In this document: positions 844 through 25,100 of the stretch, one piece after another | How positions within the stretch are numbered: position 1 is the stretch's first letter | Layout: every line of letters begins with the position of its first letter | Assembly (NCBI GenBank): GCA_032718475.1 | Contig: JAUCBJ010000623.1 | Coordinates: forward strand, 1-39,456 | Origin: Nemertoderma westbladi | Lineage: Eukaryota; Animalia; Xenacoelomorpha | Length of the DNA stretch: 39,456 nt | Reading direction: 5' to 3' | Translations under genes and position numbers: made by a program | Notes under the pieces: model-generated | Told to the model about the DNA's origin: nothing | Database searches by the model: none | The model's input: only the letters and a program-made list of their open reading frames with translations

Positions 844-2380
844 TATGGGGCGCCGTTTGGGCCAAAAATAAAAAAAACATATTATATTAAAAAGTTATAA
901 TGGTATGTTTTTTTATCTTGCCGTTTGGGCCAAAAGTTGTAATGGTATGTTTTTTTATCTTGCCGTTTGGGCCAAAAATAGCTGAGAGGGAAATTTGAAT
1001 TATCACTTTCTATATACTGTATTTATAGCAATTGCAATTATCATCATACCTGTGAGCCTGTCTGCCTATACATGATTGTGGATTGTATTTACACACGGCA
1101 GCACGGTACCGTATCGCTGTAGGAGTGGACTTTAGGCTTACCTCCCGCTGTATGGGCCTTGGCCTACCGGTACTCATATACTGTCACTGGGTAATGCTGT
1201 AATGTAGCGTTAGGCTGTTAGGTACAAATGACATTCTGACATTAATGCCTCAGTATTGCAGTATTGTGGACCACAAGATGTAGGCCTATCACAAGCACAA
1301 GGTGTAATGCTACAGGGCCTAAAGTATACTGATTTGTACCTAACGCATTACAGCATTACCCAGTGACAGTATATGAGTACTGGTAGCCAGACTGGAATCC
1401 ATACACTTTGCGCCGGATTAATCCGGCGCACTTTGCAATAAAAGCGCGCCAATGTGGCGCGTGGCGCGCTTGAAAATCGTAAAGCGCGCCGGCTTTGGCG
1501 CTTGGCGCTCCCAAAAATAAAAACCGGCGCCGATTTTTAACAATTACGGAAGTGCCTTAAAAATTGCATGCATTAGTTGTTTAAAAATTTCAGCTCGCTT
1601 CGCTCGCCTTTCTTTTTAGCATTAGGCCTATAGCTTGTTTCTGTCAGTCTGTTGTATGGTTCAGCAGTTCAGGGGTTAGCCTAGGCTACTGCCTGACTGC
1701 TGTACAGGCTGACAGGGCAGCAGGGGACAGGTACAGCCTGACAGCAGTACAGCATTACCCAGTCTGCCAGTCTGCCAGTGACCGTCGTAATGCAGTACCG
1801 TCGTACTGCATACTGACATTGACTTACTGACTTAAGACAGACTATGGTTACATTCCTTCAAAATTGAAATTGCATTGGCGTGGCCCCTGCTGGTGGCCGT
1901 GGCGCTCTTCAAAATGTTTTAATGCGCGGCGCGCTTAAAAATTTCGTTGGCGCGGGCAGGCGGGGTTTGATTCGAAATTGCATTGGCGCGCGGCGCGCAT
2001 AACAATTGGTCGGCGCGCTATCCGGCGCACTTTTTGGATGGATTCCATACAGGACTGGTAGGGCAAGGCCCATACAGCCATACAGCGGGAGGTAAGCCTA
2101 AAGTCCACTCCTACAGCGATACGGTACACCGTGTGTAAATACAATCCACAATCATGTATAGGCAGACAGGCTCACAGGTATGATGATAAGTGCAATTGCT
2201 AAATACAGTATATAGAAAGTGATAATTCAAATTTCCCTCTCAGCTATTTTTGGCCCAAACGGCAAGATAAAAAAACATACCATTACAACTTTTGGCCCAA
2301 ACGGCAAGATAAAAAACATACCATTATAACTTTTTAATATAATATGTTTTGTTTATTTTTGGCCCAAACGGCGCCCCATA
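844..2380. mobile_element. Non-autonomous foldback DNA transposon, IS3EU-like
   Basis: Termini TATGGGGCGCC...GGCGCCCCATA with inverted arms of ~390 bp (844-~1230 vs 1333-1386 plus 2062-2380). 6-bp TSD CCCGCA at 838-843 and 2381-2386. TAY..RTA ends with a 6-bp TSD match my recollection of the IS3EU superfamily. Confidence 0.75.
1387..2053. mobile_element. hAT-like MITE nested in the foldback element
   Basis: 8-bp TSD ACTGGTAG (1379-1386, 2054-2061). Imperfect 16-bp TIR CCAGACTGGAATCCAT / ATGGATTCCATACAGG. GGCGCG-rich subterminal repeats. Confidence 0.7.
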
Positions 2381-3381
2381 CCCGCACCGACGGTCGGAAA
2401 GAGTTCGAAGTTGGTTGCTCGGGCTCGAACTGTACCGTATCGGTTATATGTATCGCTAAATCGGGAACTCAATGGGGCCGCTTAGATTTCTACTGTGGAA
2501 GTTGCGCGGCACGCCACTTTACCAGGTTCACCAAGGAACTACACGATATAGAAACGAAACTTGAAGACAAGCTATCACGCTTAGAGAAAACGACTGCTGG
2601 CGAGATACTATCGCTGGAACAAAAAGTCGAGCAACTCGAACTCTCCTGTACTGCGAATGAAGTAAAAATCAGTGACACTGAATACAAACTAGAAACAATG
2701 AAAAGCAGCTCAGCAGATGAAGAATCGCCCCAAATATGGTCGGACGTCGTTGCGGACGGTGATTGGCAGAAGGTTAAGCCACAACGTCGTAACAAACGAA
2801 ATGACATCGCTTCAATTTCGCCAAATCTAGCTCTTCTCTCTAAACAAATAAAAAATGAAGAGGCGGAACAGAGCAGACGAAAAACTAACATCGTTCTCAA
2901 AGGTTCCAAGCCAAGCACCAACGACAAACAAGTAGTGTTAGATATAGCTGACGAACTGGGAGTCGAACTAGATGAATCAGAGATTAAAACTAAACGAGTC
3001 GGGCAGCTGCGAGACAATCAAAATTCACATCCAATCATTGTCACTCTTTCTAAAGAAAAGCGCGAGATATTGTTGAAGAGGGCTCGCAATCTCCGCAAGT
3101 CGTCATGTTACAGAGATATATACATATCGCCTGACTACACACCAGCGGAAAGCAAACTTCAATATTCTCTCCGGCAGGAACGGCGCGCCATGGCTGCAGC
3201 GGATCCGAATATAGACTGGATTATCCACAACGGTGCTGTAGTAGACTCGGTGACTGTCAACCGCCCCAACACGCGTGGCACCCGTCAACGTCAGTCGACA
3301 AGTGCCAACACTCAGAACGAGATCCAAGGGTTGCCTGAAAAAACTTTAATTGTAATTGATGAGTCAAGGCGGGTGGACTGA

Positions 3382-4415
3382 CTATTGCCTAAATGCCCTG
3401 AACCGACGTGCTCCAATCTTATTCAAACTCCGAGGGTTGCGGGTCAGTCTCCTCCGGTTCCGAGGGTTGCGGACCGGTCTCCTCTAGCTCCGGGGGTTGC
3501 GGGTCTGTCTCCTCCAACTCTGAGGGTTGCGGGTCGGTCTCCTCCAGCTCCGAGGGTTGCGGGTCGGTCTCCTCCAGGTCTGAGGGTTGCGGGCCGGTTT
3601 CCTCTGGCTCCGAGGGTTGTGGGCCGGTCTCCTCCAGTTCCGAGGGTTGCGGGTCGGTCTCCTCCGGGTCTGAGGGTTGTGGGTCGGACTCCTCTGGCTC
3701 CAAGGGTTGCGGGTCGGTCTCCTCCGGGTCTGGGGGTTGCGGGCCGGTCTCCTCCGGCTCCGAGGGTTGCGGGTTGGTCTCCTCCGGGTCTGGGTGTTGC
3801 GGGTCAGTCTCCTCCGGCTCCTGGGGTTGCGGGTTGGTCTCCTCTAGCTCCGGGTGTTGCGGGTCGGTCTCCTCCAGCTCCGAGGGTTGCTGGTCGGTCT
3901 CCTCCGGGTCTGAGGGTTGCGGGCCGGTCTCCTCCGGCTCCGAAGGTTGCGGGCCGGTCTCCTCCAGTTCTGAGGGTTGCGGGTCGGTCTCCTCCGGGTC
4001 TGAGGGTTGCGGGTCGGACTCCTCTGGCTCCAAGGGTTGCGGGTCGGTCTCCTCCGGGTCTGGGGGTTGCGGGCCGGTCTCCTCCGGCTCCGAGGGTTGC
4101 GGGTTGGTCTCCTCCGGGTCTGGGTGTTGCGGGTCGGTCTCCTCCGGCTCTGGGGGTTGCGGGTCGGTCTCCTCCGGCTCCGGGGGTTGCGGGTTGGTCT
4201 CCTCCGGCTCTGGGGGTTGCGGGTCGGTTTCCTCCAGCTCCGAGGGTTGCGGGTCGGTCTCCTCTGGGTCTGAGGGTTGCGGGCCAGTCTCCTCCAGCTC
4301 CGAGGGTTGCGGGAAGCAAACAGAAGTTTTGCATTGGACTATTCAATGCGCGATCGATAAATAATAAGGCTGCAATAATTAAGGATTATATAGTCGACTT
4401 GAATATTGACATACT
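3382..4415 (+). pseudogene. LINE ORF2, 5' part: Pro/Arg/Gly repeat region plus the start of the APE endonuclease (GLFNARSINNK...DIL)
   Basis: GAC ATA CT|T GCT CTT ACA GAG joins across the LTR insertion to give DILALTETWL, the conserved endonuclease motif. Confidence 0.9.
3428..4313 (+). repeat. 30-bp coding minisatellite, ~29 copies (RVAGRSPPAP-like)
   Basis: Unit ~CTCCGAGGGTTGCGGGTCGGTCTCCTCCGG is directly visible. Confidence 0.95.
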
Positions 4416-4555
4416 TATAGAATTATATTCCCTAAATGCCGTGGATTTTCAAAATTTTATTTTATTCGAATTAACTTTGTAAAGATTGCTTTGAGTTCTC
4501 ATTAGTATTGGTTCTATCTATTGTGCACCCATCGGTCAAGTGGTTCAGTAGCTCA

Positions 4556-6333
4556 TGCTGTCATGAGTAGGAATGCCTAAGGTGCGTGGTAAAAGCTAAG
4601 GTCGGTGGTAGCGTGCTAAGGTCGGTGGTAGCTTGTTAAGGTGCGTGGTAGGGAGCTGCTAAGGTAAGTGTAAAATCCAGTGAGAATATTGAGTTCTCTG
4701 GTAGTAGAGGGAAATTTAAATTCTATAAATTGTACTTTCAGTGACGCTGCCTATCTATACGCTATACCTGCCTTAGGCTGTTAGGGGTCTATTATCAGCC
4801 TATTATTATAGCAATAGGCAGAGGTGTTTAAAGGCAGAGGCCGTTTAATATACCTACCGGTACTGTAGGGTTAGGGGTTCAATAGCTTCTCTATTTAGCC
4901 CAATTCAGAATTCAGCCCAAGGCATCATATATCATGACATCTGATGTAGGCTAGGCCCTATTCTTTATTATTACTGTATTACTGTATTATCACTGCATTA
5001 TTATGCGATTATTATTATACCCGATTATTATTCACGGATTAAAACAGCAATATCTCAAATAGATGTTCTAAATGTTCTAAACAATTGATATGGATATTAC
5101 ACACGCAATTGTATTAGGAATTTTCAACGGGGGGATTTAATTGGCAAAGTTAATACATATGAAGTAAAATATGGTGGTGGTGAATATTATAGAGCTGAAA
5201 TTATAATACATGGTAATATGATTGACAATAACTTCTATACCTTCCTTACTAAGGCTCGGGACATGAAAGCTAATGGTTATTCATTTAAACAACTCCGGAA
5301 GGAAATTCAAACCCAGGATATCCGGAGTAATCGACGACCTCATTTCAGGAGCTATCAGTTGAATGGTCCACCCTTGCTGTTATCGTGTGAAGAGAACCAT
5401 CAACTGATTTTATGACATAAAGGTGTTTTTTAGGATGCTAGATCACATATATGCCACTCAATATCATATTATCCGACCAAATTAGATTTTTGTCATTTGA
5501 AATTAATTTTATGCTACTTGTATTTTTCGTCCCAGAGCAGACAAGCACCGACGATCATAGTTGCATTCATATTCCCACGAATGATTTTAACGAGTTGTAT
5601 CATGATCAGCGACCTTGAAAACCAGTATAGCTTTAGACTTATCAAACCAAAGGCAACATTTAACAGTTTGAAATTTTTGCTACTTTGTACTTTTCATTCT
5701 GGAGCACCAGATGGCACTAAAAATGACGGTTGCATTGCCCGAATATTTTTTTAACAAGTTTTATCGTAAACAGCGACCTCGAAAACCTTTAAACCATCTA
5801 AATTATAATTTTTGAGCCAAGATATAAACAAATGTCTAAAATGACCCCCCTCTGCCCCTCCCCCCCCCCTGGGCCAATTGAGTAGTAAAATAGACTGGAC
5901 CAGATAGGGTTAATTTATTTGGTCATATATGGCCATTGGTTTATTCTACACTAAAGAGAATCGCATGCTAGACACGTGCGATACGCATGGGTACTTCGCA
6001 TGATATCCGCATGCGTATCGCTTCTAAAGGTCCGGACACTTTCTCATGCGATTCGCATGCGAATTAGATGCGTGACCCACATGCGATACGCATGAACATT
6101 TTTGACTGGGGTTTCAATGGAAGTAGTTAAAATAATGTCCTATTTAAAAATGAAAACCATACTTTTTTATCTACTTATAAAATAAACCATTTCAGCAATA
6201 TGTCTAATGTTTTCACATTTTTTTCTTTTTTTGTTCCCTTTTCCCTCTTTTCCCCTTTCTGTTTATCCTTGTTTTCCTGCTGGTTTTCTTATTTTTTTTT
6301 CCCCCCTCCCAGCAGTCTGTTTCACCCCAAGCC
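4556..6333. mobile_element. TIR-less 1.78-kb insertion in the tRNA-like A box of the 5' LTR, possibly a non-autonomous Dada element
   Basis: Absent from the 3' LTR. 7-bp TSD TAGCTCA (4549-4555, 6334-6340). No terminal inverted repeats, but CTAAGGT..GTGGTA repeats at 4578-4655. The insertion itself is certain; the family assignment is inference. Confidence 0.6.
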
Positions 6334-6469
6334 TAGCTCAGTCGGTAGAGCGTTGGAAATTATATGTGTAGTAGGTATCGAGTTCGAATCCTAGTAAGTG
6401 CGAATTATTTTTTGTGCAGAATTTCAACTCATTTAAATTAACCGCTACAAATTAATTGCATTTGTCTGT

Positions 6470-6640
6470 ACCAATGAGACTGTAGTTATTTGATTGTAAC
6501 CAATGTCGTGCAAGTTATATATTAGCTGGACCAATAGCTATCTTTAAAACCTTGTTAGAACCCATAGAACAATCGAGAATTTTCTCGATTGATTGCGGCA
6601 CAAATTGGCTATATAAAGGTGCGATTTCGTTCATTAGTTT
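6470..6640 (+). promoter_or_regulatory. Putative Pol II promoter in the LTR (CCAAT boxes, TATA, Inr-like); copy at ~20555-20725
   Basis: CCAAT at ~6471, ~6500 and ~6531; TATATAAA at 6610-6617; TCATTAGT at 6631-6638. AATAAA occurs at 6749 and 7329. Confidence 0.55.
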
Positions 6641-8106
6641 ACTCTACTTCTTCAATCTTATTCTCTCAGTTATTCAGTTATCTGATATTTGTTTATTCCG
6701 TGCTTAGTTTATTTTCAGATTACATTGTATTATAATTGTATCTTCTGTAATAAAGTCAGAATCTCTCAGCTTATCTATCTGTTTTACTATGGATTCACTA
6801 CGGTGAACAAACTCAGGGACAGGATGGCCGGCTAGAGATCGGGCCGCAGCAATGAACGGGAACATCACGGGAATGTAGACGAGAGACAACCCGCAATACC
6901 ATTTAGAGTTATTCGCCCATCGCCTGAAAGGTTAGACAGCGTTCGATCCTTGCTACCTAAGTGTAAGACCAAAAGATCAAAAGGTAGAAGTAGTGACACG
7001 CTGCAAGCCTAAAATTACATCATAGGGACTGTACTGTCTTGATTCAGGAAAACCCACAGTAGACCTTCACATTCCTACGGGGGAGAGGGAGAGCGCAGGC
7101 AGATACTAGTACGCAGATAGGACGTAGGCACACCGGTACAAGGCATACACATTGGTTAGGGTGCAGCAAACTGTACGCTTAACTCTTGCTAAGTACAGGT
7201 GCGTGTGCGACTATTTGCAGTACGACAGTGTCAAGTGCATCAGAACTTGTAGGCTAGGGGGGTTGCTGTGTTTTCACCTGAATTAGGATTGTACCGTTCA
7301 GGCGGTAGGGCAGTTTACGCTAGGCGCAAATAAATTGAGGCTATCAGGGATATACTAACATCTACCGTGTCCCCGCCAAAGCCCTAATAGGAAGTTACCC
7401 GGACTACCTGGGTGACTAAAATTCTAGATAAGAGCCAGGATAGCTATTAGTACCCGTACGCCTACAGTAGTAAACTAACACATCTCTTCTTAGTATCAGG
7501 GACCTGGTACCTAAAATTGCCGAATTCTGGGCGTAGTATTAACCTTATGCCTGAATTTGAGTCCTGGAAATACGCAAGAGGGGAAGGAACCTTATCATTC
7601 GTGAGTATTGGACCTACAAGTTACAAAATTAGAATATTCGTAAAATGCACACCGTACCCAGTAATTATATATGTGAAGGAGCAAAACTGTTTTGACCGTT
7701 CAGAATTAATACGCGCGCGTTAGAAATTATTTACACCTCGAAATATATAAAATTAACTTTTGTCCTTACTGTGCTTTGCCCGCTAGTTAGACATCTCCAA
7801 ATATCTGCCTGTGTACCTAGCTAGCGTCCCTTTGCCCAACCATATAAATCACACCGCGGCAAGGTATGCGAGCCCCTTAGTCCGTCAGTGAGTCAGCCTG
7901 ATTTTAGGATTCGCTGCGCGGGATTTTGTTTTATCGAAGTTGGTCTGCTCGTAGACTGTTTTCTGCCTCACCGGTTATAAGAGATCGATACTGCAATATA
8001 TTCACTTACTTAGAGTTTACTGTTTTGGTGAGAAGGTCGGATTTATGATTTGATTTACAAACTTTACAGTAGGATATTGCAGGTATTGTTACCGTCTCTT
8101 CCAATA

Positions 8107-8117
8107 GTAGGAATGTG
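8107..8117 (+). promoter_or_regulatory. Non-tRNA primer-binding site GTAGGAATGTG, complementary to LTR 7068-7078
   Basis: Directly abuts the LTR end and lacks the TGG of a tRNA PBS. Its reverse complement CACATTCCTAC is at 7068-7078 and 21153-21163. Confidence 0.7.
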
Positions 8118-8915
8118 TTTTACTGAACTACGGTTCGGTAGGACTAAAGTTATTTGAAAATTTTGTATTTTGAGGTAAAAATTTGTATTTGATTAGCTAA
8201 GTGCTAATTTTTTGAAATAAAAAATTTGATTTGAACCGCGTGTAAAATATTTTGGAATTGAATACCGGTGTTTAAAAGGGTTTAAATACCATATTATACC
8301 GGTACAAAATTTTTCGTAAAGTAAAACCTAACTCTTTTGTTTTTCAGGATTCAGAACTCATTTCTAGACTGTAACGGGAGCAAGACCGTGTTTAGCAAGT
8401 TTGGGAGATAGATAACTCAACAACTTTGGTTGGGAAAATCGCGTTTCGTCCGCAACGTTAAAAACGGAAAGGTTCACGTCTGGTTTGTATCTGAGAATCT
8501 GTTTTTCTGGAGAATTATTGGAGTGGGTGAGTTCGAAAAGTTGCATAAATAAGTTAGGCATTACCGTATTAGTTAAAATTATTGTGGGTTCCACTGTCTC
8601 AAGTATTTATGCATTCCGTATGAGTTCTTTGTTCATTGCTGAATTAGTCCGTATTATTGTATTTAATTTACCTTTTGATAACGCATATCGTTATCTGATT
8701 TATTTGTTATAAAATTGGCCGCTAGGCTAATTTTATTATATACTTATTCCGTGACATTTATTTGCTGTAAAATTGGCCGTTTAGGCTAATTTTATCCATC
8801 TGCTATAAAATCGGCCGGTAGGCTAATTTTATAAGACTGTAATTAGTACCGTTTAGATAAAATACGGTAAGTTTGATACTTTGACACTCACTTTACTTGA
8901 CTTACAACTACCGAA

Positions 8916-11900
8916 ATGAGTGACAAACAAGACTATACGAAAAATACACAAACCGACTATGACTCATGTGACGCGGATAAGTCAGCAGCGGAAGAACAAC
9001 AGTGGAAGACTCGCGAGCCTACCGAACCTACACCGTGTGCGTCACCAGTACATCCAACGGGAGTACCGGATGCCGTAGTACGAGGCGACGGCAGGACCGA
9101 GGACTTTCTAACTGTTCCGCAACCTAGATATAGGGAAACGGACATGGTAAGTTCAGCAGGAAGCACAGAAAGTGTGGTTAGAAGCGTCGGAGGTTACATG
9201 GCGCATATAACCAGGAGTATTGGAGAAGGCCAACGCATATTAGACGGGTTGACCGCTCCGATGTCTCGATTCGAGTTCTACACCCTCCAGGTTAGAGTAC
9301 AGAGTAAAGTATATAAGTCCGTAGATAATCTAGTTGGCCTACAAGATCTAGCTAGACAGAGACAGGACATGGATACTCAGCTTAGAATCCTCGAGAAACT
9401 AATGATCACTAGAGAGAAACTGATTCAGTTTAAGTCGACGATTAGACAGATACAACAGGAACAAGCGGACCAGTTGTTAGGTGAGTCAGTTTCAGACGAA
9501 TTATTGCAACCCGAGGAAGAACAGGAACTGTACCGACTGGATGGACAATTGAAACATCTGACGGATCACTTACGTATGTGCGGCGAGGACGTCGGAGATT
9601 GGGAAACCGTGCCGGAAGCTACGAGGGAAACTTCACTCGCACAAATCAAACCGGTACCGGGAACACTAAATCAATCATTGGTGAGTATTCGCAGCGAAAT
9701 TGGCGAGGTGAGTATGGCTACGTCAGAAATTGCTCGACAACAGCAGCTCTACAGACAACAACGAGAAATCGAGGAACAAACTCAGTTATTGACGTTACAA
9801 GCAGCTGTAGAGGAAGAGAAACTACGCGTCGCAAATGTTGCGAGAATTTTTCATCTGCAAGAACAAGCTGAGTTGGAAGCAGCCGAAGTAGAAAGGTTGG
9901 AGTTGGACATTGCACAACAAGCGGCAGCGGCCGAGTTAGCGCAACGAACAGCTGCGGCCGAGTTAGAGCGACAAAGGCTAGCTTCAGAAGCGAGAACCGA
10001 AATGAAAACACGGCAAATAAAGGCTCAGTCAGCTATACGACAAGCAGAGTTCGAGGCGCAACAACAACAAACGGAACAACGCGAGAAAGAAGTTAAACTT
10101 CGTTTCGAACTCGAGAAGAAGGCGAGAGAATTAGCCAACGCCAAGGAAGATCTGGATCTACAAGCCCGCGATCGATCGATGAGATCTCGAGATGGACATG
10201 ATTTAGACCAGATGGAGGTAAGGCACCGCCAAATCCAGGAACGAATGAAGGAAGGTTCGATAGGAGCACCTGGACGGGAACGACAATTAGTTAAAGACTT
10301 ATGTCAACGATTCCCACAGGTAACTCATAGGTTTGCACCAGTTACGACAAAGGAACCTGTTTCGATTGCGGGTAGTAGTAACATTTCTCCTATCCATGGT
10401 GCGACGGAACACAGGTTTGTTATTCCGGACGAGTTTACACCGCCAAGAGCAACGTCGTCGCCTATTCCGAAGGTCAAGGTAAGTAACCCGCCGATTACAG
10501 ATCGTAGTAGTTTATTAGTCGAACCTGTATTACTGACGACTAAACAGGTGAGTCCACCTCTGACGCCAAAACCTGTTACACACTACGCTTACCCAATGAC
10601 GTTTAGGCCAACAAGGCCTTTGGATTCAAATGCTGTCATTCGCCCACCGGTTCAGTTTACATCGCAATCTACGACTTCGAGGAAGACTTGTGAGCCTACC
10701 GAACAACGGAGAACAGTGGATACGCGACCGTTCAACCAGTTTACATCGCAATCTACGACTTCGAGGAAGACTTGTGAGCCTACCGAGCAACGGAGACCAG
10801 TGGATACGCGACCGTTCAACCAGTTTACATCGCAATCTACGACTTCGAGGAAGACTTGTGAGCCTACCGAACAACGGAAACCAGTAGACGATGTTCCGAA
10901 ACGGAATGTTAGGATTCGAACGGTGCAACGGACTCGAGCACGTCGACCACCGTATCCAGGTGACAGTAGTACTTCGAGCGAGTCGGATTACCCGGAACGC
11001 GAGGTATTTAGAACAGGAGCGGCCGACAAATGTAAACGTGAGCGTTCGGATAATTCATTTATCGACAATCCTCCACAGAATACACCAACACAAAAGGCGT
11101 TACAACCAACAGACGCGATCAGTACACAACAATTCGCCGACATTGTCAACAAGTTGGCCCGGATTGAGGAGCGTCTGGAGGAAGTTCAAACCGATAGTTC
11201 GAGGAACACTGAGTTCGAACACAATAGACACCAGAAGGAACCACAAAGACCAGTACCTTCAAAACACCCATCGTATCAGGGAAAAGCGCCAAGAAGGGAG
11301 AACATCAACCAGATTACCAACCAAGGACGCGAAACTCTGAACGTTGCCGAGGAGATAGCGAAATTCGCAGCCAGACAAGGATTGCCGGTGCAACAACCAC
11401 CGAAGTTTTCTGGTAGCTCAAAACACTGGCATACTTTCGTAGACTATATCGAATCCCAGATCGCCGTGTGCGCCTTTACATCACGGGAGAAGTTCAATTA
11501 CCTGCTCCAAACGTTGTCAGGAGAACCTAAACGTTTGGCGGAGACTTTCGTCGGTGTACCGGACGCTTTCGAACTAGCGTACGATCGTTTAACTTCGATA
11601 TACGGAGGTACAGTGAGCATGGCCAGGTCAGTAATAGAGGAACTCTGTAAGGGAGGGGCTATCACTAAACCCGTCGACTTACTAAACTAGCTGACGAGAT
11701 CAAGAACGCTATCACTACCTTAAGATCAATTGGACAACTTGATTACGGGAATACCCCTACAGTCCTATTAAAGATAATAGGACGACTCCACCATCGACTT
11801 CGTCGGGAGTGGAGGAAGGTCGAATACCAGCGAGAGGAGCGGGGAGGATTCTTAAAATTAGAAGATGTGTACCTTTTAATATCCAGGGAGGCGGTAGTAG

Positions 11901-14112
11901 AAACTCGATCTAACTACACCGACCAGCACATCGTGGCAGAAGGAATCACACTGCCATCCTCCAACCGACAAAAACCCCAGACAACATCCACTAAGACGGC
12001 CACTTACGCCACACCGACGGAATCACGACAATTCTCAGACGGTAATAGAGTATCTGCGCCCATTGGGACGAAACAGACGAGACAGCAACTCAGCACCGAC
12101 TTCAACGGCTGCCAATACTGCGAGCATCTAGGTAAGCGGTATATTGGTCACAAGTTACGAGGTTGTCGACAATTTCGCGAGTTGAACTCGGAAGAACGAC
12201 GGCTGCAGATACGGCCACTGGACTCTTGTTGGCGGTGTACGCGACACGGACACGTCCGTAAAGATTGCCCAAATACCGACACTTGTCCATCCTGTGGACG
12301 CAACCATGACGGTCTGCTCCACACAGACAGCCACACGCCGACGAAACGCTTCGCCAGGGAACACCCGGAAGCAGCAGCGAGATGTGATGCGGCTTACCGA
12401 AAACGGGAATCGAAAACAACTCCGACCTTCGTGACACATATTGAGGATTGCTTCTCAGAACAATCCGGATCGTCGGACGAAGAATCAGAAGACGACGACG
12501 AATATTCCAATGGAGACGAACAACCGTCGATCGCGCTCCTGACCACTGATCAACTGAAGGGATTCAGTGTAATCCCGATTAAGGTTACTGGCACAAAGGG
12601 GAGCAAGAGGATCTATGCGATTCTAGATTCAGCCTCATCTCACAGCTACGTGGACGAAAAGATAGCTGACGTCGTGACGGATCTTAAACAAGGTAAGCGT
12701 GTCAGTTATACAGTAAGTAGTATGCACGGACAGCGTGCAATACCAGTGACACGAGTTAAGTTGGACTTAGACTCTCTTCTTCCAAAATCGCAACACAGCG
12801 AGAGGGAGAGGTCTTTGTTACCCTTTAGAGATCTGACCTTTGCGGCCACGAAGGACTTTAGTAACCTACTAGGTCCAGTGCCGGAACAATCTCTGGAGGA
12901 CCGTAAGTATTTCAGACACCTTGGTGTACCCGAATGTCCTGTCAATTATAGATCGGTAGCAATGCTGATCGGGACAGACCAATTCAACCTACATCAGGTG
13001 TGGGAAACCAGACCATCGGCAGTTGTAGCGGGAAACGCATACGCCTGCAGAACGCCGATAGGGTGGTATACTCGAGCGCCTGTGCGCACACTAGACGTAA
13101 GTGACGAGGAAGACGATGTACAGAGTACATGTAGTTTATTAACTACAAATTCAATTCATTCCTTTTCACACGACGTGAACCATACTACACTACAGTCGAC
13201 AAAACATGACAGACGTGTAACTAGTATGATAAGTCGCAAGAAGCAGCTAATCCACCAGCGGAGTTTAGAACTTGGGAAGAAGGCGAGTCAGCCAGAGATT
13301 CCATCGACGACAGATGATAACGCCGGAAGACTTGCGAGCCTTTCTACACCAGACATATCGCCAGACGGTCAACCAGACGCGTTACTAGACGGTCAACCAG
13401 ACATTCTACCAGACACTAGTGACATACTGACAAACAGTAAAGCCGCAGTTTCCCTATTGGAGCGGCCTTCTATTGACAAACTACCAATTTTGACACACTT
13501 GAGCAACCATAAGCAAGGTGAAACCTCATGTATTACAGATGTGGGTAGTACCTACGCTAATGTAAATACAGGTGTTACTTTGCGCTCAAGAGACATACCG
13601 AACTTACAACCTATGGTGAGACCTGGGATTAATGTCGGCAGAAAAATAAGTTTACCGAAACCTGCTGACCCCATAGAGTTCAAACCACCATTAACGATCG
13701 ACTTACAAAGTACTGACAATCAAGGTAAGAAGACAAAGAAGGACAAATTACTTGTAGACCCGGACGGATCAACAGTCAACAAGGGAATACTTACCGGCGG
13801 ACCCGTGGGCCCTTCTAGTAATTCAAAACCTTCCAAAATCTCCATTGACTTACCTGATGACGTCACAAATACTTACGTCGACCGTATTGTAAACTTAACA
13901 GATTCTTGGACAAACGCTTGCCGAAAATTAGCGTGGATTGTACGTTTTGTACAATACGTTAAAGGCAAACGTGACTTTACACGTCGACTTACATTGGCTG
14001 AGATTGACAGGTGTGAGATTAAATTAATTCGCCATTACCAACTGCGATATTTCGCACGCGAATTCACATCCATAAATCAAGGTCAACCAATCAAGTCGTC
14101 ACCAATACTGAG
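8916..14112 (+). pseudogene. BEL/Pao Gag-protease polyprotein, 5' part; -1 frameshift at ~11685; interrupted at 14113
   Basis: Long coiled-coil N-terminus; gag core PPKFSGS..W..F / EKFNYL..TLSGE; PVDLL continues as KLADEIKNAITTL in the -1 frame. Knuckles CQYC..H...C, CWRCTRHGHVRKDC and CPSCGRNHDGLLH. Protease AILDSASSHSYV, MLIGTD and TPIGW. Confidence 0.88.
10652..10887 (+). repeat. 84-bp coding tandem repeat, ~2.8 copies, in gag
   Basis: QFTSQSTTSRKTCEPTEQR occurs three times. Confidence 0.9.
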
Positions 14113-14917
14113 TAGGGATGTCCCGGAATCGATATTTGATTCCGGCCGGAACCGGAACCGGAATTCAACATGCCGGAATATTCCGGCCGGAATTCCGGCC
14201 GGAACCGGAATTTTCTATAATTAGTGAAATACACTAAATGACCCAGGAAATTTTATAATTTTTTATGAAACAAATGAATTTTTTTAATTTCTACAGTAAG
14301 TTTGTTAATGAGATGAATCAGAACCTTGGGGGGAATTAAGGTGGGTGGAGTGGAGAATGACCTGAGCTGTTTGTTACGGCCTATCGCGTCATTAGGTCCT
14401 TTGACGCAATATCTTGGTGTCTTTAAGGAGAAGGAGCATGTTACAGTGACATGTTATTCGAACCAAAACAATAAACGAGCCCAATAAATATTACATGTTA
14501 CAGTTTAATTATTGCTGGGAATAAATAGATTTATGGTAAGAGAAATGGATTTGCTGTAAATAGAAATTAAACTACTATATTATGCAGCACCTACGACGCA
14601 GAACTAAACTAACGACCACTCGCAGGACCTGTACGTGTTGTAATAACGTTTTATATTTATATTAGTTTTAGGTTAAAGTAGTAATTGTAATTGTGTTAAT
14701 CGTTAATCGAGTTTCATTGCTAACTTTAGAAGGTTAGCAATTTATTTAGCCTCCTGAAATTATCATATTATTTAATAATTAATTCAATGTAAAATAATAT
14801 AAAATCAATGTAAAATAATTTAAACTCAATGTAAAATATTGTAAGATCAATGTAAAATAATGTAAAATCAATCTAAAAAACGCCATTTTATAAGCAAATT
14901 GGAAAAACCACCCGCTA

Positions 14918-15238
14918 AGGCCCGTGCTCCACTGGTAAGTCTTATAAAGTCTTAGTCAGAATAAATTATGGAACACATTGGTTTCAATGGGAGCTTCTCC
15001 ACTGGTAAATCGTAAGTTACGACCTATGGGTCGAAAGTGATTATGTCCCATGTTCCATCTTTTGACATATGAATCATGTGTTATATCCGGCAAGATGCCT
15101 CTGATTGGTTACTTTGGGTATAATAAATATGCAGTAAATGTGAATCGCACCTTATTTTTTTATCAAATGACTTATGACTTATGTTACCAATGGAGCAATG
15201 AGGCATTCATTAATCTGAAAACAGTGAAGCGCGGGCCT
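14918..15238. mobile_element. PIF/Harbinger-like MITE nested in the hAT element
   Basis: TIR AGGCCCGTGCTCCACTG / CAGTGAAGCGCGGGCCT and 3-bp TSD CTA (14915-14917, 15239-15241). Confidence 0.7.
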
Positions 15239-15450
15239 CTAATGATGCATTTCATAAAATATCTTCAGAACGACAAAGGGTTTAATTAGTATGAAAATTA
15301 AAAGGGTTATTTTGAATTGTATATGAATACTACCTAAGTGGTGTAACAGATGGTGGGACCATTTTAGTTTGAGGTAAAAATTTTTCAAGACTGAATTCAC
15401 TGTAATAAACAGGGTGGCTGTGAATTTTCCCTCGTTACATAGGTTAGTTA

Positions 15451-15530
15451 GGTTCCACCTTGGTGTAGTGGTTGCATTGAATTCCAATCTATCTGGAGGT
15501 CGTGGGTTCGATCCCTGTATGTGGGCCAAG
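15451..15530 (+). other. tRNA-derived (SINE-head-like) sequence inside the hAT element
   Basis: A box TGGTGTAGTGG at 15461-15471 and B box GGTTCGATCCC at 15505-15515; no complete cloverleaf. Confidence 0.55.
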
Positions 15531-15878
15531 GCAGTTTTCGATTCGGCACGAATGGTTTGAAGGGGCTGACCAGGGGGCATCTATGCCTTGCATCCAAATG
15601 TTAGCTCTAACGGTCGAAGAAAATTTTATTTCTATACTTTTTTGCAAGTGTTGAAAAGTATCTTAATCGAATTGGTAATAATGTTTAAAAAATATATAAA
15701 TGTTGATAATAATTTAACAAACTAATTGCAGCTATTAAACTAGATATGAACCTTGCAATTCCGGTAAAATTCCGGCCGGAATTGACCCCATTCCGGCAAT
15801 TCCGGCCGGAACCGGAATCGGGCAAAAACCGCCGGAATTCCGGCCGGAACGGAATTCCGGGACATCCCTAATACTGAG

Positions 15879-17151
15879 TTGGAGTCCGATTATTTATAAT
15901 GGCTTAATTTGTCATAAATCTCGGCTTCAAAACATTGACCTTAACACAAACTTTAGGTACCCAATAATAATACCGCAACATCACGAACTACAACGTGCAA
16001 TGATACTGGACGCACATTTACATCTGAAACACGCTGGAAGACACCACTGTCTTTCCTACTTACGTACAAGATTTGTATTAATTAGACCCAGTAAAGCGTT
16101 AAGTTCAGTGACGCGTACGTGTATTATTTGTAAAAAGGTACATTCTAGAATAGGTACCCAAGAAATGAGTGAACTACCACAAGCACGACTTCAAGCATTC
16201 AGACCACCTTTTACAGAGACTGGAATTGATTGCTTTGGTCCCATACATACGAAACGTGGACGTATACTAGTAAAACGCTGGGGACTGATTTTCACATGTA
16301 TGTCCAGTAGGGCAGTTCACATTGAACGTGTGATGGATCTTTCCACCAACGCGTTTATACTAGCACTGCGGCGATTTATCGCTAGACGCGGACTAGTGAA
16401 ATGCTTGTACTCAGACCAAGGGACAAACTTTGTTGGTGCTCGGAATGAGATTGCTAGAGCCTTTAAGAAATTAGATCATGATCAAATCTCGAACGAACTA
16501 CAACCTCACAAGATTGTTTGGAAGTTCAATCCTCCAGATAGTCCTTGGAGAGGCGGAGTCTGGGAGAGATTGATTAGATCTATAAAGACAGCCATGGCAA
16601 AAGTCATTCCAGTAAACCACATACTGACAGACGACCAACTGACAACATTGTTTGTTGAAATCGAGGCAATACTAAATACTAGACCAATAGTATTAGTACC
16701 CGATGACAAACAATCTCAATTTGCTTTAACACCAGCACACCTGCTTATGCAGGCACCGACCACATTAATACCTATTTCTATTCCAATAGAAAGCGACAGC
16801 TACGGTAGAAAAGCGTGGAAAATCACGCAACTACTGGCTAACAAATTCTGGGAAATATGGCAAAACCATTATTTGCCCTCTATTTCTGCCAGAACAACTT
16901 GGTATAATAACACCCGCGCATTAAAGCCGGGAGATCACGTGCTGTTGGCAGAAGTGAATCTAAAAAGACGCTTCTGGATAACAGGTGTAATTTTAGCCAC
17001 ACATCCATCTATGGATGGAGTGACAAGAACTGTGACGGTACGGACAATTGACGGTCGTACAGTAGACAGACCGACTCAACGTCTCGTACTTCTTGAAGAG
17101 ACTCGTAATGAGTCTGGAGACTACAAATCTCCAACTAGTATTAGTAAATAA
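15879..17151 (+). CDS. BEL/Pao integrase (C-terminal part of the polyprotein)
   Basis: HHCC (HLHLKHAG...CIIC), DDE triad (GIDCFGP, SDQGTNF, GVWERLIR) and a BEL-type C-terminus (FWEIWQNHYL, DGVTRTVTVRT). Confidence 0.93.
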
Positions 17152-17814
17152 TTAGGAGTTTACAAATAGATTTCCACGTACCTGTACACCGTAGTAAGGA
17201 CAGCGGTAGAATTCCATTGTCTTTATATGTGAACATTGAGGGTAGTACCCTTATGTGTCACATAGGAGCGGGATTTGTAGGTATAAGAAATGGAATTCTA
17301 CTTGGAACTCACAATATTGAGACATTTTCGAAAATTTAGACAATCCATTTGGATTTGAAAAATTTTTAAAATTTTCTCCAGTGAATAGATTCCAGGGTAC
17401 AGTCGGGTGGAACTTAAAATTAGAGAAACAAGAGAGGAAGACTTGCGAGCCTTTCTTAAAATTTTAATTAAATTTTACACGGTCTTGTTTCAATAAGTTA
17501 CGCAAATAAATAGACTCCCCTATATTTATTACTAATTCTTGACTGCTTATTTTCTGATAATAGTTTGGGATCAAAAAGTGAGTATTTTAGACTCACAGCC
17601 AGTTTAGCCCAAATTCGTTTTTTATTTCGGCAAAAAATTTTAGATAAGAAGCAGCGTGTCATTAAAGAAACCTTAGATCTTAGGCTATGGGTAGGAGGTT
17701 AGAGCGTTGTCGAAGCCCAAAGGGCAGACGAAACTCTCACGTCTCCTCACAACTAACCACAAACTCTGTTGTATTCCCTCTAGTAGTAATGATTATGTAA
17801 CTACACCCCTAATT

Positions 17815-19517
17815 ATGGAGAAAGGGATACAAGGAGAGCCGAGATGGGGATATGATATCCAAGAGGAGGCAGCAGCGCCATTCGAAAGATTTGGAGCCAA
17901 GGACTACACTATATTTGGTATAAAGGAATTATCAGAAAGTACAGCGAAGCTCGCAAAGACAGCAATGCCTTTACTCGAGCAGGATTTAGTATATTTCGAG
18001 ACGTGTATCTTCGCTGTGCGGGATCTCTTATCGAAAGACCATCTATGTTTACACTGTTACCCTATGAAGGAGAACGTATCGTGGAAATTACGGATGAATC
18101 ACGGCAGACGCGCGCGCCTATCGGTCACCTTGGTGATGAATTCGAAGTAACTACTACGATCGCCGACGATCCTTTAGAGGAACTTCTTGAGATAGAAAGG
18201 AACCTCCCGAAGAAATCTCAGACGGAGATTCGACAACTTGAAGCAACAGATGCTATAGTTTGTATACAACCTTCAGAAACCTACCAACCCATAGACCCAG
18301 ATGATTACGATTATAGTATGGGAGGAAGCGCTCGACCGATTGGAGATCTTATATACGAACGAGTGTGGTACCCTGCCAATACGATGTGTAGTAAATGTGG
18401 CGTCGCTGGACATCATATGGCAAAGTGCAGTGGAAAGCACATTACTACGACTCAGCTAATCTGTGGATGGTGTGGGGATCAAGGGTCTCATACCTTTTAT
18501 ACTTGCTGGAGATTTATGGCTCAATGTACTTACTGCAATATAAAGGGACATCGAGCATCCGAATGCCAACTAAGAGACATACCTTATGAACACGAATCTG
18601 TAAAACTCGTGAGGAAGTTATTTGATGAGTGGGAAGATTTAGCCGACGAACATGTATCAGCACAAAGAAGACGGTTTCCGATGAGAGCGCATCTCGGATT
18701 TTGGGCGGTAAATCCTCAAACGATGATGTCGGAAGGATATATCTCCGCTATGCCCCAATATGACGAACTTATCGAGGTTGTCGATATTTTGCCCCACGAC
18801 AGCGGATTTCGAGTGGTGCGCGAGTATCTGTTACAGATTCACCCGGATAACAAAAACACGTGGAATTGTCAGAAAGTCGTTAATCGGATTACGTATGGTG
18901 AATTCGATCGTTTCCGAACTGAAAAGCGGAACAAGGGAGCTTGGTTAACCGTTGCATGGGCGTACCGAGCCGCGTTTTACCATAAACGTATACGAGCGAG
19001 CGTATTCGAGGAAGAAGAGGTCCTAGAGGCGACGAATATACCAGCCACTCCGGTTGCGCCGTCTGCACGTCACCCTCGGGAGGACGGGCAGGGTAGGATC
19101 ATACGGGTCCAGAAAGTGGGCCAACAGTTAAAGAAAATTATTAATGTAGAAGAACGCAAGGGAGTTGAGCCGACTATTCGAGTTACTCGGGATACGGTAT
19201 CACTTCCAAGAGAACCAGTAGGAGGATCGGGACATACACCAGCTGATCAACAGGGGGCGCAAGCTACTCTTGGGTCTGCGTCGTCCACTTCTCACGCGTT
19301 CCCAGACGTTCTACCAACTGTAGTGACGACTGATCGGTCACGAGGAATTGGTCGAGGTTTTGGGGTGCCAAATAGACGAATTTGCGAGGAAATAGTCGCA
19401 CCGTCTCTCAACGTCCCAGGTAAACCAGTGACTCGCCCCATTAGTCCCATATCGCGAGCAAAGTCACCTGTGCGCAGTTTTCGAGGACGCGGCAGGGCTC
19501 GATCCACTAAGCGATAA
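17815..19517 (+). CDS. Extra ORF3 of the LTR element: protein with three CCHC zinc knuckles and a basic tail; main frame open from 17856, start uncertain
   Basis: CSKCGVAGHHMAKC, CGWCGDQGSHTFYTC and CTYCNIKGHRASEC. No evident signal peptide or transmembrane segment. The ATG at 17815 is in another frame. Confidence 0.75.
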
Positions 19518-20285
19518 AAGGGAGGGCAAGGGTGGATGTAAGACTCGTGAGCCTTTCTTATGATTTTGTGATTTATTTTGAATTATATGTTTTATATTTA
19601 GAAAACTTATGCAATTTGTATTGTTCCGAATTTATGAAATTTTGAAATAAGAACTTATATTTAGTAAACTTATATTTAGCAAGATTTATATTTGTAAGAA
19701 TTTATATTTTATATTTGTAATTATTCCGAACTTATGCAATTTATATTATTCCGAACTTATGTAATGTATATTGTTCCGAATACTATGCAATTTATATTTT
19801 ATAAGCAGTATTTGTATTTACAGTGAAATAGAAAGTTTTATAGATAGAAAATTTGTGCTCAGAAAGACTCATATTTGTAATTATTCCAAACTTATGCAAT
19901 CTACATTTAGGTACGAAAGTATTTGTAATTACTTGAATTTATGCAATATTTGAGATGCAATAGTAGATGGAAGACTCGCGAGCCTTTCTTATTGTTTTCA
20001 TTTATTTGTATTTGTAATTGTTTGAATTTATGCAATATTGAGATGCAATAGATTTATATTGGTGAATTTAATTTAGATTTATATTGTACTTACTTAGTAA
20101 AGCCTTAAATACGTAAAGTTTGAATTTGTAATTATTTTTGTATCGAATCATTACGTAAAAAAGGAAGTATTGTTTGAAATTTAATTGTAAATATGTAAGT
20201 ACGCCCTAAGTATTCTATAGTTTGATTGATTATTGGTGAAAACCGTATATTTTATGCACGATAATATCCTGTTTTCATGGAGCGG

Positions 20286-22191
20286 TATAGAATTATATTC
20301 CCTAAATGCCGTGGATTTTCAAAATTTTATTTTATTCGAATTAACTTTGTAAAGATTGCTTTGAGTTCTCATTAGTATTGGTTCTATCTATTGTGCACCC
20401 ATCGGTCAAGTGGTTCAGTAGCTCAGTCGGTAGAGCGTTGGAAATTATATGTGTAGTAGGTATCGAGTTCGAATCCTAGTAAGTGCGAATTATTTTTTGT
20501 GCAGAATTTCAACTCATTTAAATTAACCGCTACAAATTAATTGCATTTGTCTGTACCAATGAGACTGTAGTTATTTGATTGTAACCAATGTCGTGCAAGT
20601 TATATATTAGCTGGACCAATAGCTATCTTTAAAACCTTGTTAGAACCCATAGAACAATCGAGAATTTTCTCGATTGATTGCGGCACAAATTGGCTATATA
20701 AAGGTGCGATTTCGTTCATTAGTTTACTCTACTTCTTCAATCTTATTCTCTCAGTTATTCAGTTATCTGATATTTGTTTATTCCGTGCTTAGTTTATTTT
20801 CAGATTACATTGTATTATAATTGTATCTTCTGTAATAAAGTCAGAATCTCTCAGCTTATCTATCTGTTTTACTATGGATTCACTACGGTGAACAAACTCA
20901 GGGACAGGATGGCCGGCTAGAGATCGGGCCGCAGCAATGAACGGGAACATCACGGGAATGTAGACGAGAGACAACCCGCAATACCATTTAGAGTTATTCG
21001 CCCATCGCCTGAAAGGTTAGACAGCGTTCGATCCTTGCTACCTAAGTGTAAGACCAAAAGATCAAAAGGTAGAAGTAGTGACACGCTGCAAGCCTAAAAT
21101 TACATCATAGGGACTGTACTGTCTTGATTCAGGAAAACCCACAGTAGACCTTCACATTCCTACGGGGGAGAGGGAGAGCGCAGGCAGATACTAGTACGCA
21201 GATAGGACGTAGGCACACCGGTACAAGGCATACACATTGGTTAGGGTGCAGCAAACTGTACGCTTAACTCTTGCTAAGTACAGGTGCGTGTGCGACTATT
21301 TGCAGTACGACAGTGTCAAGTGCATCAGAACTTGTAGGCTAGGGGGGTTGCTGTGTTTTCACCTGAATTAGGATTGTACCGTTCAGGCGGTAGGGCAGTT
21401 TACGCTAGGCGCAAATAAATTGAGGCTATCAGGGATATACTAACATCTACCGTGTCCCCGCCAAAGCCCTAATAGGAAGTTACCCGGACTACCTGGGTGA
21501 CTAAAATTCTAGATAAGAGCCAGGATAGCTATTAGTACCCGTACGCCTACAGTAGTAAACTAACACATCTCTTCTTAGTATCAGGGACCTGGTACCTAAA
21601 ATTGCCGAATTCTGGGCGTAGTATTAACCTTATGCCTGAATTTGAGTCCTGGAAATACGCAAGAGGGGAAGGAACCTTATCATTCGTGAGTATTGGACCT
21701 ACAAGTTACAAAATTAGAATATTCGTAAAATGCACACCGTACCCAGTAATTATATATGTGAAGGAGCAAAACTGTTTTGACCGTTCAGAATTAATACGCG
21801 CGCGTTAGAAATTATTTACACCTCGAAATATATAAAATTAACTTTTGTCCTTACTGTGCTTTGCCCGCTAGTTAGACATCTCCAAATATCTGCCTGTGTA
21901 CCTAGCTAGCGTCCCTTTGCCCAACCATATAAATCACACCGCGGCAAGGTATGCGAGCCCCTTAGTCCGTCAGTGAGTCAGCCTGATTTTAGGATTCGCT
22001 GCGCGGGATTTTGTTTTATCGAAGTTGGTCTGCTCGTAGACTGTTTTCTGCCTCACCGGTTATAAGAGATCGATACTGCAATATATTCACTTACTTAGAG
22101 TTTACTGTTTTGGTGAGAAGGTCGGATTTATGATTTGATTTACAAACTTTACAGTAGGATATTGCAGGTATTGTTACCGTCTCTTCCAATA
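20286..22191 (+). repeat. 3' LTR, 1906 bp, intact
   Basis: Direct repeat of the 5' LTR, preceded by a weak purine tract GGAGCGG and followed by the TSD ATACT. Confidence 0.95.
20412..20498 (+). ncRNA. tRNA-like Pol III unit within the LTR (not a functional tRNA)
   Basis: A box/D-arm TAGCTCAGTCGGTAGAGC at 20419-20436, B box GAGTTCGAATCC at 20465-20476 and T6 at 20493-20498. Acceptor and anticodon stems do not pair. Confidence 0.6.
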
Positions 22192-22196
22192 ATACT

Positions 22197-25100
22197 TGCT
22201 CTTACAGAGACATGGCTGACAGGCAAGGATGAGGATGACTCTGTCGTGGAGGAAACGTGCCCTGCTGGATTTAAATTCGCACACGAACCCAGAACATGGA
22301 CATCAGGTGGTGGAGTTGGCTGCGCTTACAAGGGCAGTTTGGATATGGAACCATTCAAGATCGTACGAGCTACATATCGATCTTTCGAATATATTGAATT
22401 GACACTAACGCACCTTGGTGCCTACTTCCGCCTGTTAATTCTGTACCGTACTTATCCCTCAACAGTAAACAAACTAAATACATCGATGTTCCTTGAGGAA
22501 TTTAGTGATCTACTGCAACAACTTATGGTGGCAACGGGGAAATTAATTATTATGGGAGATTTTAACTTCTGGGTGGATGATTCAACAAATAAGGAATCTG
22601 CAAGTTTCTTAGATGTTGTGAACTGTTTTGGCATGGAACAATTATTACATGAGGCAACACACCGCAAAGGACACACTTTAGATTTGGTGTTGATGCACAA
22701 AGACGATATCGATATAATTAAGGATATACGGGTGTGTGACATCGGTATCTCGGATCACTACTTAATATGTTTTGATATATCACTACCAAAACCTATTGCG
22801 GTAAAAAAGATTATTTCGCACAGGAAACTGAGCCGTATAAACATGGGCAACTTGATTTCAGATATCGAAACATCAGCATTATGTGTAAACCCACTACCAC
22901 ATGACGTTGACCAACTGGTAGAACTCTATGACAAAACACTATTATCACTACTGGATAGACATGCACCATTGGTAACGAAGACAGTAATTGAGCGTCCAAT
23001 GGCACCATGGTATACCGAGTCAATAGCCAATGAGAAGAGAACTAGACACCGATTGGAGCGCAAATATCGGACAACGAAACTGCATGTTGACCTCTTGGAA
23101 TACAGAAACCAATGTTACAAGGTAGCAGCGGCCATCTCAACGGCTAAGGAACAATATTATAGCGGGATAATCAAGAACAATTCAGAGGACCTAAAAACAC
23201 TATTTAAAGTCGTCAATAAAGTTTTACACAGAGGAAATAAGGTTATATTACCGAGACATAATTCTGAATTGGAATTAGCTAACAGATTTGTAAACTACTT
23301 CGATAATAAGATTAAATCTATTCGAGATGGTCTAAACCACAATGGGACGTCATCCGGGACGCCATCCGGGACGCCTCCCACGCCATCCGGGACGCCTCCC
23401 TCGCCGTCTGGGGTGCTGCCCGCGCCGTCCGGGGTGCCTCCACCCACGCCATGCGGGTCGCCTCCCAGGCCATCCGGGACGCCTCCCACGCCATCCGGGA
23501 CGCCTCCCTTGCCGTCTGGGGTGCTGCCCGCGCCGTCCGGGGTGCCTCCACCCACGCCATGCGGGTCGCCTCCCAGGCCATCCGGGACGCCTCCCACGCC
23601 ATCCGGGACGCCTCCCTCGCCGTCTGGGGTGCTGCCCGCACCGTCCGGGGTGCCTACACCCACGCCATGCGGGTCGCCTCCCAGTCCATCTGGTACGCCT
23701 CCCGCGCCGTCCGGGACGCCTCAAGGACCGTCAGGGATGCCTCCCACGTCATCCAGGGTGCCTCTCGCTCCGACCAGGGTACCTCCTGCGCCATCCGGGG
23801 CGCCGTCCGGGACGCCTCCCGCACCGTCCGGGAAGCCGTCCGGGGTGCCTCCCGCGCCGTCCGGGACGCCTCCAGCACCGGTCCTTCACAAATTTTGTGA
23901 CATAACGAGCGACGGCGTTGAAAAACTGATAAGCGACTCGAAGTCAAAATCAAGTCCACGTGACCCGATTCCAACCAGCATACTAAAGATGTCCTTAAAA
24001 CCACTATTGATGGTCATTACATTGATAATTAACTTATCTTTACAAACTGGAACTGTGGCTTCGCGTTTCAAAGAAGCAATTCTCACACCAATACTAAAGA
24101 AATTGCGATTAGACCCGGAAATACTCAATCACTTTAGACCGGTTTCGAACTTACTGTACATTTCCAAATTAACTGAGAAGGTGGTGGTAGAGCAGTTAAA
24201 GCACCACATGAATCTGAACGGTCTGCATGAACCCTACCAGAGTGCCTACCGCCCATTACACGGTACGGAAACTGCTTTGTTATCTGTTGCTGATACGGTA
24301 CTTCGTGGAATTGACGATGGTTCGGTGTGTTTGTTTATCACACTTGATTTAAGCGCGGCATTCGACACGGTTGAACATAGCAAACTATTGCAGATACTTA
24401 AACACGACATTGGCATTGATGGCGTCGCCCTTAAATGGTTCGTATCATATCTATCAGAGCGCTCGCAACAGGTGCGTATTGGGAATACATATTCCATCGC
24501 AAAGCACCTCCGCTATGGACTACCACAGGGTTCGGTATTGGGTCCGATTCTGTTTACGATATACACGCGTTCACTATCAGCTGTAATAAAGCGGCATGGT
24601 CTACATTGTCATTTCTACGCGGATGATACCCAATTATATTTGATTTTCAAGCCAATTGAATTAAACAGCGCTGTAAAAGTAACTGAGAGTTGCCTCGTGG
24701 ATGTGCTGGAGTGGATGGATAAAAACTACTTAAAAATGAATTCCGATAAAACTAAAGTCCTGTTATTGCAGTCCAGGTTCGGCATCCAGCAGGACCCCCC
24801 AGTACTGACCATTGGGAGCGACATAATATCGTGCAGCCCAAACGTTCGCAATATCGGGTTCGAATTAGACTCTCAGCTTACAATGTGCAAGCAAATAGGA
24901 ATCACCGTTCGTGAGGCATTCTTCCATTTAAGGAATCTTTCAGAGATAAAGCGATACGTCAACAAACAAAACATGGAAATACTTATACACGCACTTGTAA
25001 CATCAAAGCTTGACGCCAATAATTCTCTCTACTACGGTCTGCCAAAAAAATCCATTCAGAAACTACAGTACGTTCAAAACTCCGCGGCTCGACTTCTATG

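Follow-up and report, generated by a model that had tools for sequence, protein, structure and literature searches.

A divergent BEL/Pao retroelement at positions 4416–22191 of the window, by which we mean the whole stretch of 39,456 nucleotides analysed here, likely starts its minus-strand DNA with its own RNA. The bases that adjoin its 5′ long terminal repeat (LTR) are the exact reverse complement of a segment inside that LTR. Judged from sequence, the reading in which the RNA of this element, which lacks a reverse transcriptase (RT), is cut and copied by an RT supplied in trans seems to us somewhat better than an even proposition, and priming by its own RNA in some form is highly probable.

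Self-priming is known from Tf1 and Tf2 of Schizosaccharomyces pombe, from Tj1 and from Tosmo1-3, where the RNA's own 5′ end serves as the primer, in a three-duplex pretzel (10.1101/2022.12.06.519325, PMC4600332, PMC5341516), and Tf2 transcripts without primer cannot be reverse transcribed (PMC5341516). It has also been predicted for Tcn1 and for the TAR lineage of plant Ty1/copia elements (Houba, Osr-1) from complementarity between PBS (primer-binding site) and LTR (PMC6317226). The present element shares with Tf1, Tf2, Tj1, Tosmo1-3 and the Tf1/sushi/Tcn1 chromoviruses the lack of a tRNA site and a PBS after the 5′ LTR that complements its own LTR RNA, and the spliced RNA that we propose here would resemble the primer-less transcripts of Tf2. 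With TAR it shares the basis of the prediction, although those are plant copia elements and this is an animal BEL/Pao element. It differs from Tf1 in several respects: Tf1 belongs to the Ty3/gypsy superfamily and its primer is the RNA 5′ end, whereas here the candidate primer is found some 430 nt downstream of the TATA start; its flanking helices do not reach significance, the primers of relatives are often made across a splice junction, and the element has no chromodomain match and no RT. It works like Tf1 in principle yet is not a Tf1/sushi element.

The priming mode is apparently undescribed in BEL/Pao elements. Cer7, a BEL/Pao element of C. elegans, supplies a primer RNA of its own, which is the product of a separate tRNA-like gene serving a TGG-type PBS and not a segment of the LTR. 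No confirmation of this own-primer RNA was found in the available part of PMC554778 or in a literature search, and no paper on BEL/Pao self-priming was found in the literature covered, which excludes subscription journals and Repbase reports; the available parts of PMC554778, PMC3601003 and PMC5443660 hold no mention of it, and the main text of a BEL/Pao survey (PMC3118150) has no occurrence of primer, PBS or tRNA. Own-RNA priming here, if true, would mean that the mode exists in all three LTR superfamilies and would call for a revised definition of the family; many animal elements would then be overlooked or misjudged by LTR finders that insist on a tRNA PBS.

Architecture and affinities of the element

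The element is non-autonomous and recently inserted, and is composed of the following parts, listed with the duplications that flank it and the later insertions that interrupt it:

4411–4415 (+): left target-site duplication, 5 bp, within a LINE ORF2 endonuclease frame (endonuclease/RT by Pfam); the same 5 bases stand at 22192–22196, and a 6-bp reading is also possible
4416–4555 (+): first part of the 5′ LTR, starting TA not TG; 140 nt, 100% identical to 20286–20425
4556–6333 (no strand): insertion of 1.78 kb that later split U3 of the 5′ LTR; its 7-bp duplication (4549–4555/6334–6340) falls in the A box of a stretch that resembles a tRNA
6334–8106 (+): main part of the 5′ LTR, ending TA not CA; 1,773 nt, 100% identical to 20419–22191
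8916–11690 (+): long gag-like ORF with DUF1759 near its end; the frame changes near 11670–11690
11669–14112 (+): ORF with three Cys/His knuckles, an aspartic protease motif (LDSAS) and a pre-integrase connection; RT and RNase H are absent
14113–15870 (no strand): hAT-like MITE inside pol, with terminal inverted repeats and an 8-bp duplication
15883–17151 (+): BEL/Pao-type integrase (H2C2 and DUF5641)
17856–19517 (+): extra ORF of 553 codons after the integrase, with three CCHC-like knuckles and no identified family
20279–20285 (+): short polypurine tract
20286–22191 (+): intact 3′ LTR, 1,906 bp
22192–22196 (+): right target-site duplication

Members of the Belpaoviridae have an 18-nt PBS for tRNA-Arg or tRNA-Gly, LTRs of 0.2–1.2 kb and genomes of 4.2–10 kb, and their replication is poorly understood (PMC8742986). 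The element resembles them in its DUF1759 gag (E 2e-08), triple Cys/His knuckles, protease and DUF5641 integrase (E 2e-21) in gypsy-like order, and also in its LTRs, polypurine tract and short target-site duplication, despite TA..TA ends and LTRs beyond the ICTV range. Homologues of the integrase, at 37–43% identity, have PF18701 and in many cases PF05380 as well; in a quick tree of 101 rows the window integrase stands on a branch 2.24 long, whose placement is unsure. It departs from the family in having no tRNA PBS, no RT or RNase H between protease and integrase, LTRs of 1.9 kb with TA..TA ends, a length of about 14 kb once the two insertions are subtracted and the additional zinc-knuckle ORF. 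The absence of RT and RNase H was seen in tblastn with the polyproteins of five relatives, which match before and after the YxDD region and not across it, and in a search of all six frames of the element for [YF][VIMA]DD, which gave none; cutting and copying must therefore come in trans. No chromodomain was matched at E up to 1 and the integrase ends in DUF5641, which sets the element apart from Tf1/sushi. We conclude that it is a non-autonomous BEL/Pao derivative without the tRNA PBS of the ICTV definition, and that its identical LTRs and 5-bp duplication show recent reverse transcription despite the missing tRNA site. In sequencing-run contigs the family is abundant (high-copy) in organism A. 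The product of the extra ORF, which had no family match and no usable match in the ESM Atlas, could, speculatively, be an RNA chaperone.

The insertion at 4556–6333 is Dada-like by its target site only: its 7-bp duplication lies in a tRNA-like A box, and the duplications of Dada transposons, of 6–7 bp, fall in the A box of tRNA genes (PMC3706591), it showed no terminal inverted repeats among the 25 longest inverted repeats listed, and it has no ORF of at least 150 aa. Its target, a tRNA-like stretch of the LTR U3 in which A and B boxes were recognised by eye, stands at 6334–6395 and 20419–20480; ARAGORN found no tRNA genes in the window, and Rfam over 4300–22300 gave two weak matches below cut-off. 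Ten bases from its start the insertion carries, at 4566–4575, the same 10-mer as 8106–8115, the only two occurrences in the window, possibly by chance. The host LINE is split by the element in its endonuclease frame into 2338–4410 and 22197–25464, which include an ORF1-like frame, a 30-nt tandem array, and endonuclease and RT. Elsewhere in the window, 844–2380 has terminal inverted repeats of about 310 nt at 96% and is likely a DNA transposon derivative, and a fragment of a gene with a fibrinogen C-terminal domain (27983–29046, E 2e-46) is consistent with an animal host.

The primer-binding site and its partner in the LTR

Self-alignment shows LTR identity stopping at 8106/22191, which fixes the first internal base, and the features that concern priming are these:

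7068–7078 (+): candidate 3′ segment of the self-primer, exact complement of 8107–8117
7079–7086 (+): purine run able to pair with 8095–8102, not significant alone
8107–8117 (+): primer-binding site, at offset 0 from the LTR end, without TGG

The 11 bases at 8107–8117 are the exact reverse complement of LTR bases 7068–7078, so that the Tf1-type arrangement, a PBS adjoining the LTR and complementary to it, is present, and no TGG of a tRNA site follows the 5′ LTR. The candidate primer lies 1,028 nt from the LTR end and some 430 nt downstream of the TATA start; it occurs a second time in the 3′ LTR at 21153–21163. Of all 12,169 internal 11-mers, only 14 find a complement in the LTR, the very first among them. 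An exact complement of the LTR-adjacent 11-mer arose in 9/20,000 dinucleotide shuffles of the LTR, and in 7/20,000 in a separate test of contiguous matches. The whole duplex, at −39.5 kcal/mol, was matched in 0/300 shuffles (mean −24.5, sd 2.4) and by none of 202 other internal windows (best −36.4 kcal/mol). The preliminary description had given both the 11-mer complement and the missing TGG correctly, in every coordinate. That the match arose by chance, or as a single inverted copy left behind by template switching and without function, is very improbable: when splice joints and offsets are allowed, 11 nt are reached in the 1.9-kb LTR in 7/1,000 to 53/2,000 (any GT donor) shuffles, but the match here is contiguous and at offset 0 (7/20,000 and 9/20,000), no other primer site is present, and the same geometry recurs in all eight relatives with fixed LTR ends.

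The pairing had also been said to continue from 7079–7086 to 8095–8102, with two G-U pairs and 8103–8106 looped out, and it does; this helix alone was equalled in 50/500 composition-keeping shuffles. Further pairing, absent from the preliminary description, is predicted upstream of the primer, between 7057–7063 and 8119–8125. The other flanking helix in the window was reached in 1,040/2,000 shuffles and is not significant. In the Tf1-type three-duplex pretzel both flanking helices draw on sequence downstream of the primer; here one downstream helix can form (50/500), and the other predicted helix uses sequence upstream of the primer. In the relatives described below the 3′-side flanking helix was significant in 0/8; the 5′-side helix gave a Fisher p of 0.013 over relatives that are not independent, with no diagonal excess in its swap matrix. 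On these grounds (0/8 on the 3′ side, no diagonal excess on the 5′ side) we rejected flanking helices as conserved features.

Own-LTR complements in distant relatives

By integrase alignment 79 BEL/Pao loci were collected, at 36–41% identity to the window integrase. Most of them lack a usable LTR end; two copies fixed the end in nine, and, L071 being identical to L073, eight non-identical relatives were left. Rows left out were L004 (identical to L003) and L014 and L020, whose ends are unclear. Each of the eight has an exact complement of its own PBS, 11–15 nt long and at offsets 0–4, in its own LTR, reached in at most 1/1,000 shuffles in every case. None keeps its PBS while having lost the complement, the pattern that the preliminary description had named as refuting self-priming. 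There are six distinct PBS types among the eight, three relatives sharing one, and in a swap matrix of seven relatives together with the window 7/8 rows gave their top score to their own PBS, the exception being a sister family.

In six relatives (L010, L013, L026, L027, L038 and L073, from their 3′ LTRs) the complement spans a GTAAG..AG splice junction and is complete only once an LTR intron of 76–164 nt is removed; when any GT donor was allowed, 5/6 of these still chose the GTAAG donor. In the other two, L067 and L043, the complement is contiguous as in the window, and both primers also end in AC. The LTRs of all eight relatives end in CA and begin with TGT or immediately beside it, and the element of the window has TA..TA at 4416–4420 and 22187–22191. 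A rule fixed beforehand (ACA end, GTRAG donor, offset 0–3) found the signature in 5/10 further loci at a null of at most 1/200, one of them, L033, being a near-copy of L013. Among the five misses, L035, L037 and L043 match at offset 4 after a post hoc widening of offsets to 0–5, made after L043, L069 and L035 had been seen, and L009 and L023 are without the signature. A blind scan for LTR ends over 11 loci was underpowered, and in it only L023, with a non-canonical donor, beat its null. An exact 24-base pattern of LTR end and PBS had no match in metagenome contigs, and 29 pattern matches in viral contigs yielded none that was confirmed.

These comparisons also bear on whether the primer at the PBS is a host RNA, such as a tRNA fragment or another small RNA, and the complement in the LTR has a structural or regulatory role (in splicing, packaging or masking of the PBS), which we think rather unlikely. 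Belpaoviridae are primed by tRNA-Arg or tRNA-Gly according to the ICTV (PMC8742986), and half-tRNA primers are described for copia groups (PMC6317226). Against this, TGG follows the LTR in neither the window nor any of the 15 relative loci tabulated (0/8 of those with fixed ends), all 189 metazoan tRNA 3′ ends listed in PMC13524379 end in CCA, and three 8-mers of the PBS and its complement had no match in seven supplements of that paper. The PBS, moreover, varies by family and tracks its own LTR, as would not be expected if the primers were a fixed set of host RNAs.

A poly(A) hexamer stands 12–129 nt downstream of the primer in 8/8 relatives, which is what cleavage and strand transfer require, and a TATA-like box lies 75–295 nt upstream of it in 4/8, that of a fifth falling inside the intron. 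The window has in addition an AATAAA upstream of its primer (6749), unlike all eight relatives.

Transcripts and the proposed route of priming

The signals that would govern the RNA of the element are the following:

6610–6617 (+): TATA box TATATAAA, with a putative start near 6636–6642
6749–6754 (+; 3′ copy 20834): AATAAA upstream of the primer, absent from the preliminary description, which genomic RNA must skip in the best model
6931–8347 (+): GT..AG intron, in one contig of run X4 with 26 letters on its short side
7067–7073 (+): Initiator-like YYANWYY, whose +1 would be 7069
7329–7334 (+; 3′ LTR copy 21414): AATAAA, 251 nt past the end of the primer, predicted end of R in genomic RNA; its position is as the preliminary description gave it

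The sequencing runs consist of contigs only, none on record as RNA, and contigs cannot show starts, ends, cuts or levels. Run X4 appears to be RNA, from its one GT..AG joint and from a single contig in which 97 changes, mostly A>G, were listed. The joint of 6930 to 8348, which is absent from runs X1, X3 and X5, implies that the RNA starts upstream of about 6903, and as removal of the intron deletes both primer site and PBS, its product is likely the mRNA for translation. The uneven depth of X4 along the LTR was set aside as evidence, since DNA runs dip at 6602–6775 too. A hypothetical intron at 6963–7047 was dropped, the duplex shifting by only 0.6 kcal/mol and no such joint being observed.

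We propose that an unspliced transcript of the TATA promoter, starting near 6640, would fold 7068–7078 onto 8107–8117, and that RNase H of a partner RT would cut it at 7078|7079, by analogy with Tf1. The cut would leave a capped 5′ fragment of about 440 nt with its 3′ C on the first base after the LTR. RT would then copy from 8106 back to 7079 and jump to the 3′ copy. That copy would have to continue beyond 21163, as far as about the AATAAA at 21414, and the 3′ LTR would make good the 5′ piece that was lost. The spliced RNA, having shed primer and PBS with its intron, would serve translation only, as the X4 joint in part shows. No precedent for a primer of 440 nt or a loop of 1 kb was found in the literature covered. 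We give about even chances to the wider proposal that much of BEL/Pao primes not with tRNA but with a long, capped RNA of its own leader, often assembled by splicing, and that the divergent RT-less TA..TA family has kept this mechanism over a loop of 1 kb, depends on another element for cutting and copying, and has a single intron by which its RNA is divided between messengers that lack the primer and genomes able to prime.

The preliminary description had held that the distance of the primer from the TATA box calls for a second start or a long primer. The primers of relatives also seem to lie far downstream of a TATA-like box, so the long primer is the likelier of the two and a second start seems unnecessary. 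A short, Tf1-like primer of 10–11 nt from a second start at the Initiator-like motif is unlikely in our estimate. In its favour, YYANWYY, which we take to be the Initiator consensus, has a match precisely where the primer starts, the core helix forms with probability 0.8–1.0 in folded RNAs that run from 7040 or 7068 to 8200, and Tf2 uses alternative starts (PMC5341516). But so short a motif is common, neither a TATA box nor a well-placed DPE lies near 7069, the boxes of four of the eight relatives stand 75–295 nt upstream, and the spliced primers of six relatives would give no bare 5′-terminal 11-mer unless exon 1 were tiny. In global folding, the helix is part of the minimum-energy structure for 2/14 leader fragments, forcing it costs 0.6–32 kcal/mol and its pairing probability is 0 for RNA starting at 6636, such long-range predictions being weak evidence in either direction.

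The primer might instead come from the 3′ LTR copy, as an RNA with its 3′ end at 21163, or from a second packaged RNA, the template remaining uncut, which we judge quite unlikely. The segment does occur twice (7068 and 21153), and a template leader that needs no cut would let R begin at the TATA start. A precise, non-polyadenylated 3′ end would however be required, and six relatives need the LTR intron spliced out, yet both LTRs retain it, where a spliced 3′ copy would presumably lose it. Priming by the cut leader of the element's own RNA stays our preferred reading. In all, the shuffle statistics and the family-specific complementarity in 8/8 distant relatives support the self-priming BEL/Pao element of the preliminary description; its Tf1-like flanking helix is not conserved, being significant in 0/8 relatives, and the element, lacking RT and RNase H (which that description had not noticed), cannot cut or copy itself. 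Mapping of RNA ends would bear directly on the primer end predicted at 7078|7079 and on the primers that relatives make by splicing. The proposal also raises the question whether an RNA duplex so distant from the 5′ cap, and belonging to the RNA of another element, can be cut by RNase H.

Among the variants listed from the runs there is no change in 7068–7078 or 8107–8117, where fewer than one is expected in the 22 bases by estimate, and run X5 (organism B) has zero cover at both. In some family copies (8095–8114; X1, X3 and X4) the LTR end is duplicated in tandem over 27 bases, which take in the first 8 of the PBS; this is possibly a trace of priming at a shifted site. In a low-depth variant (8043–8106; X1 and X3) the last 62 LTR bases are replaced by 26 others, without the 8095–8102 helix partner, and the same PBS follows. 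The 97 mostly A>G changes in the X4 contig lie at 7260–7963, as ADAR hyper-editing of double-stranded RNA would give.
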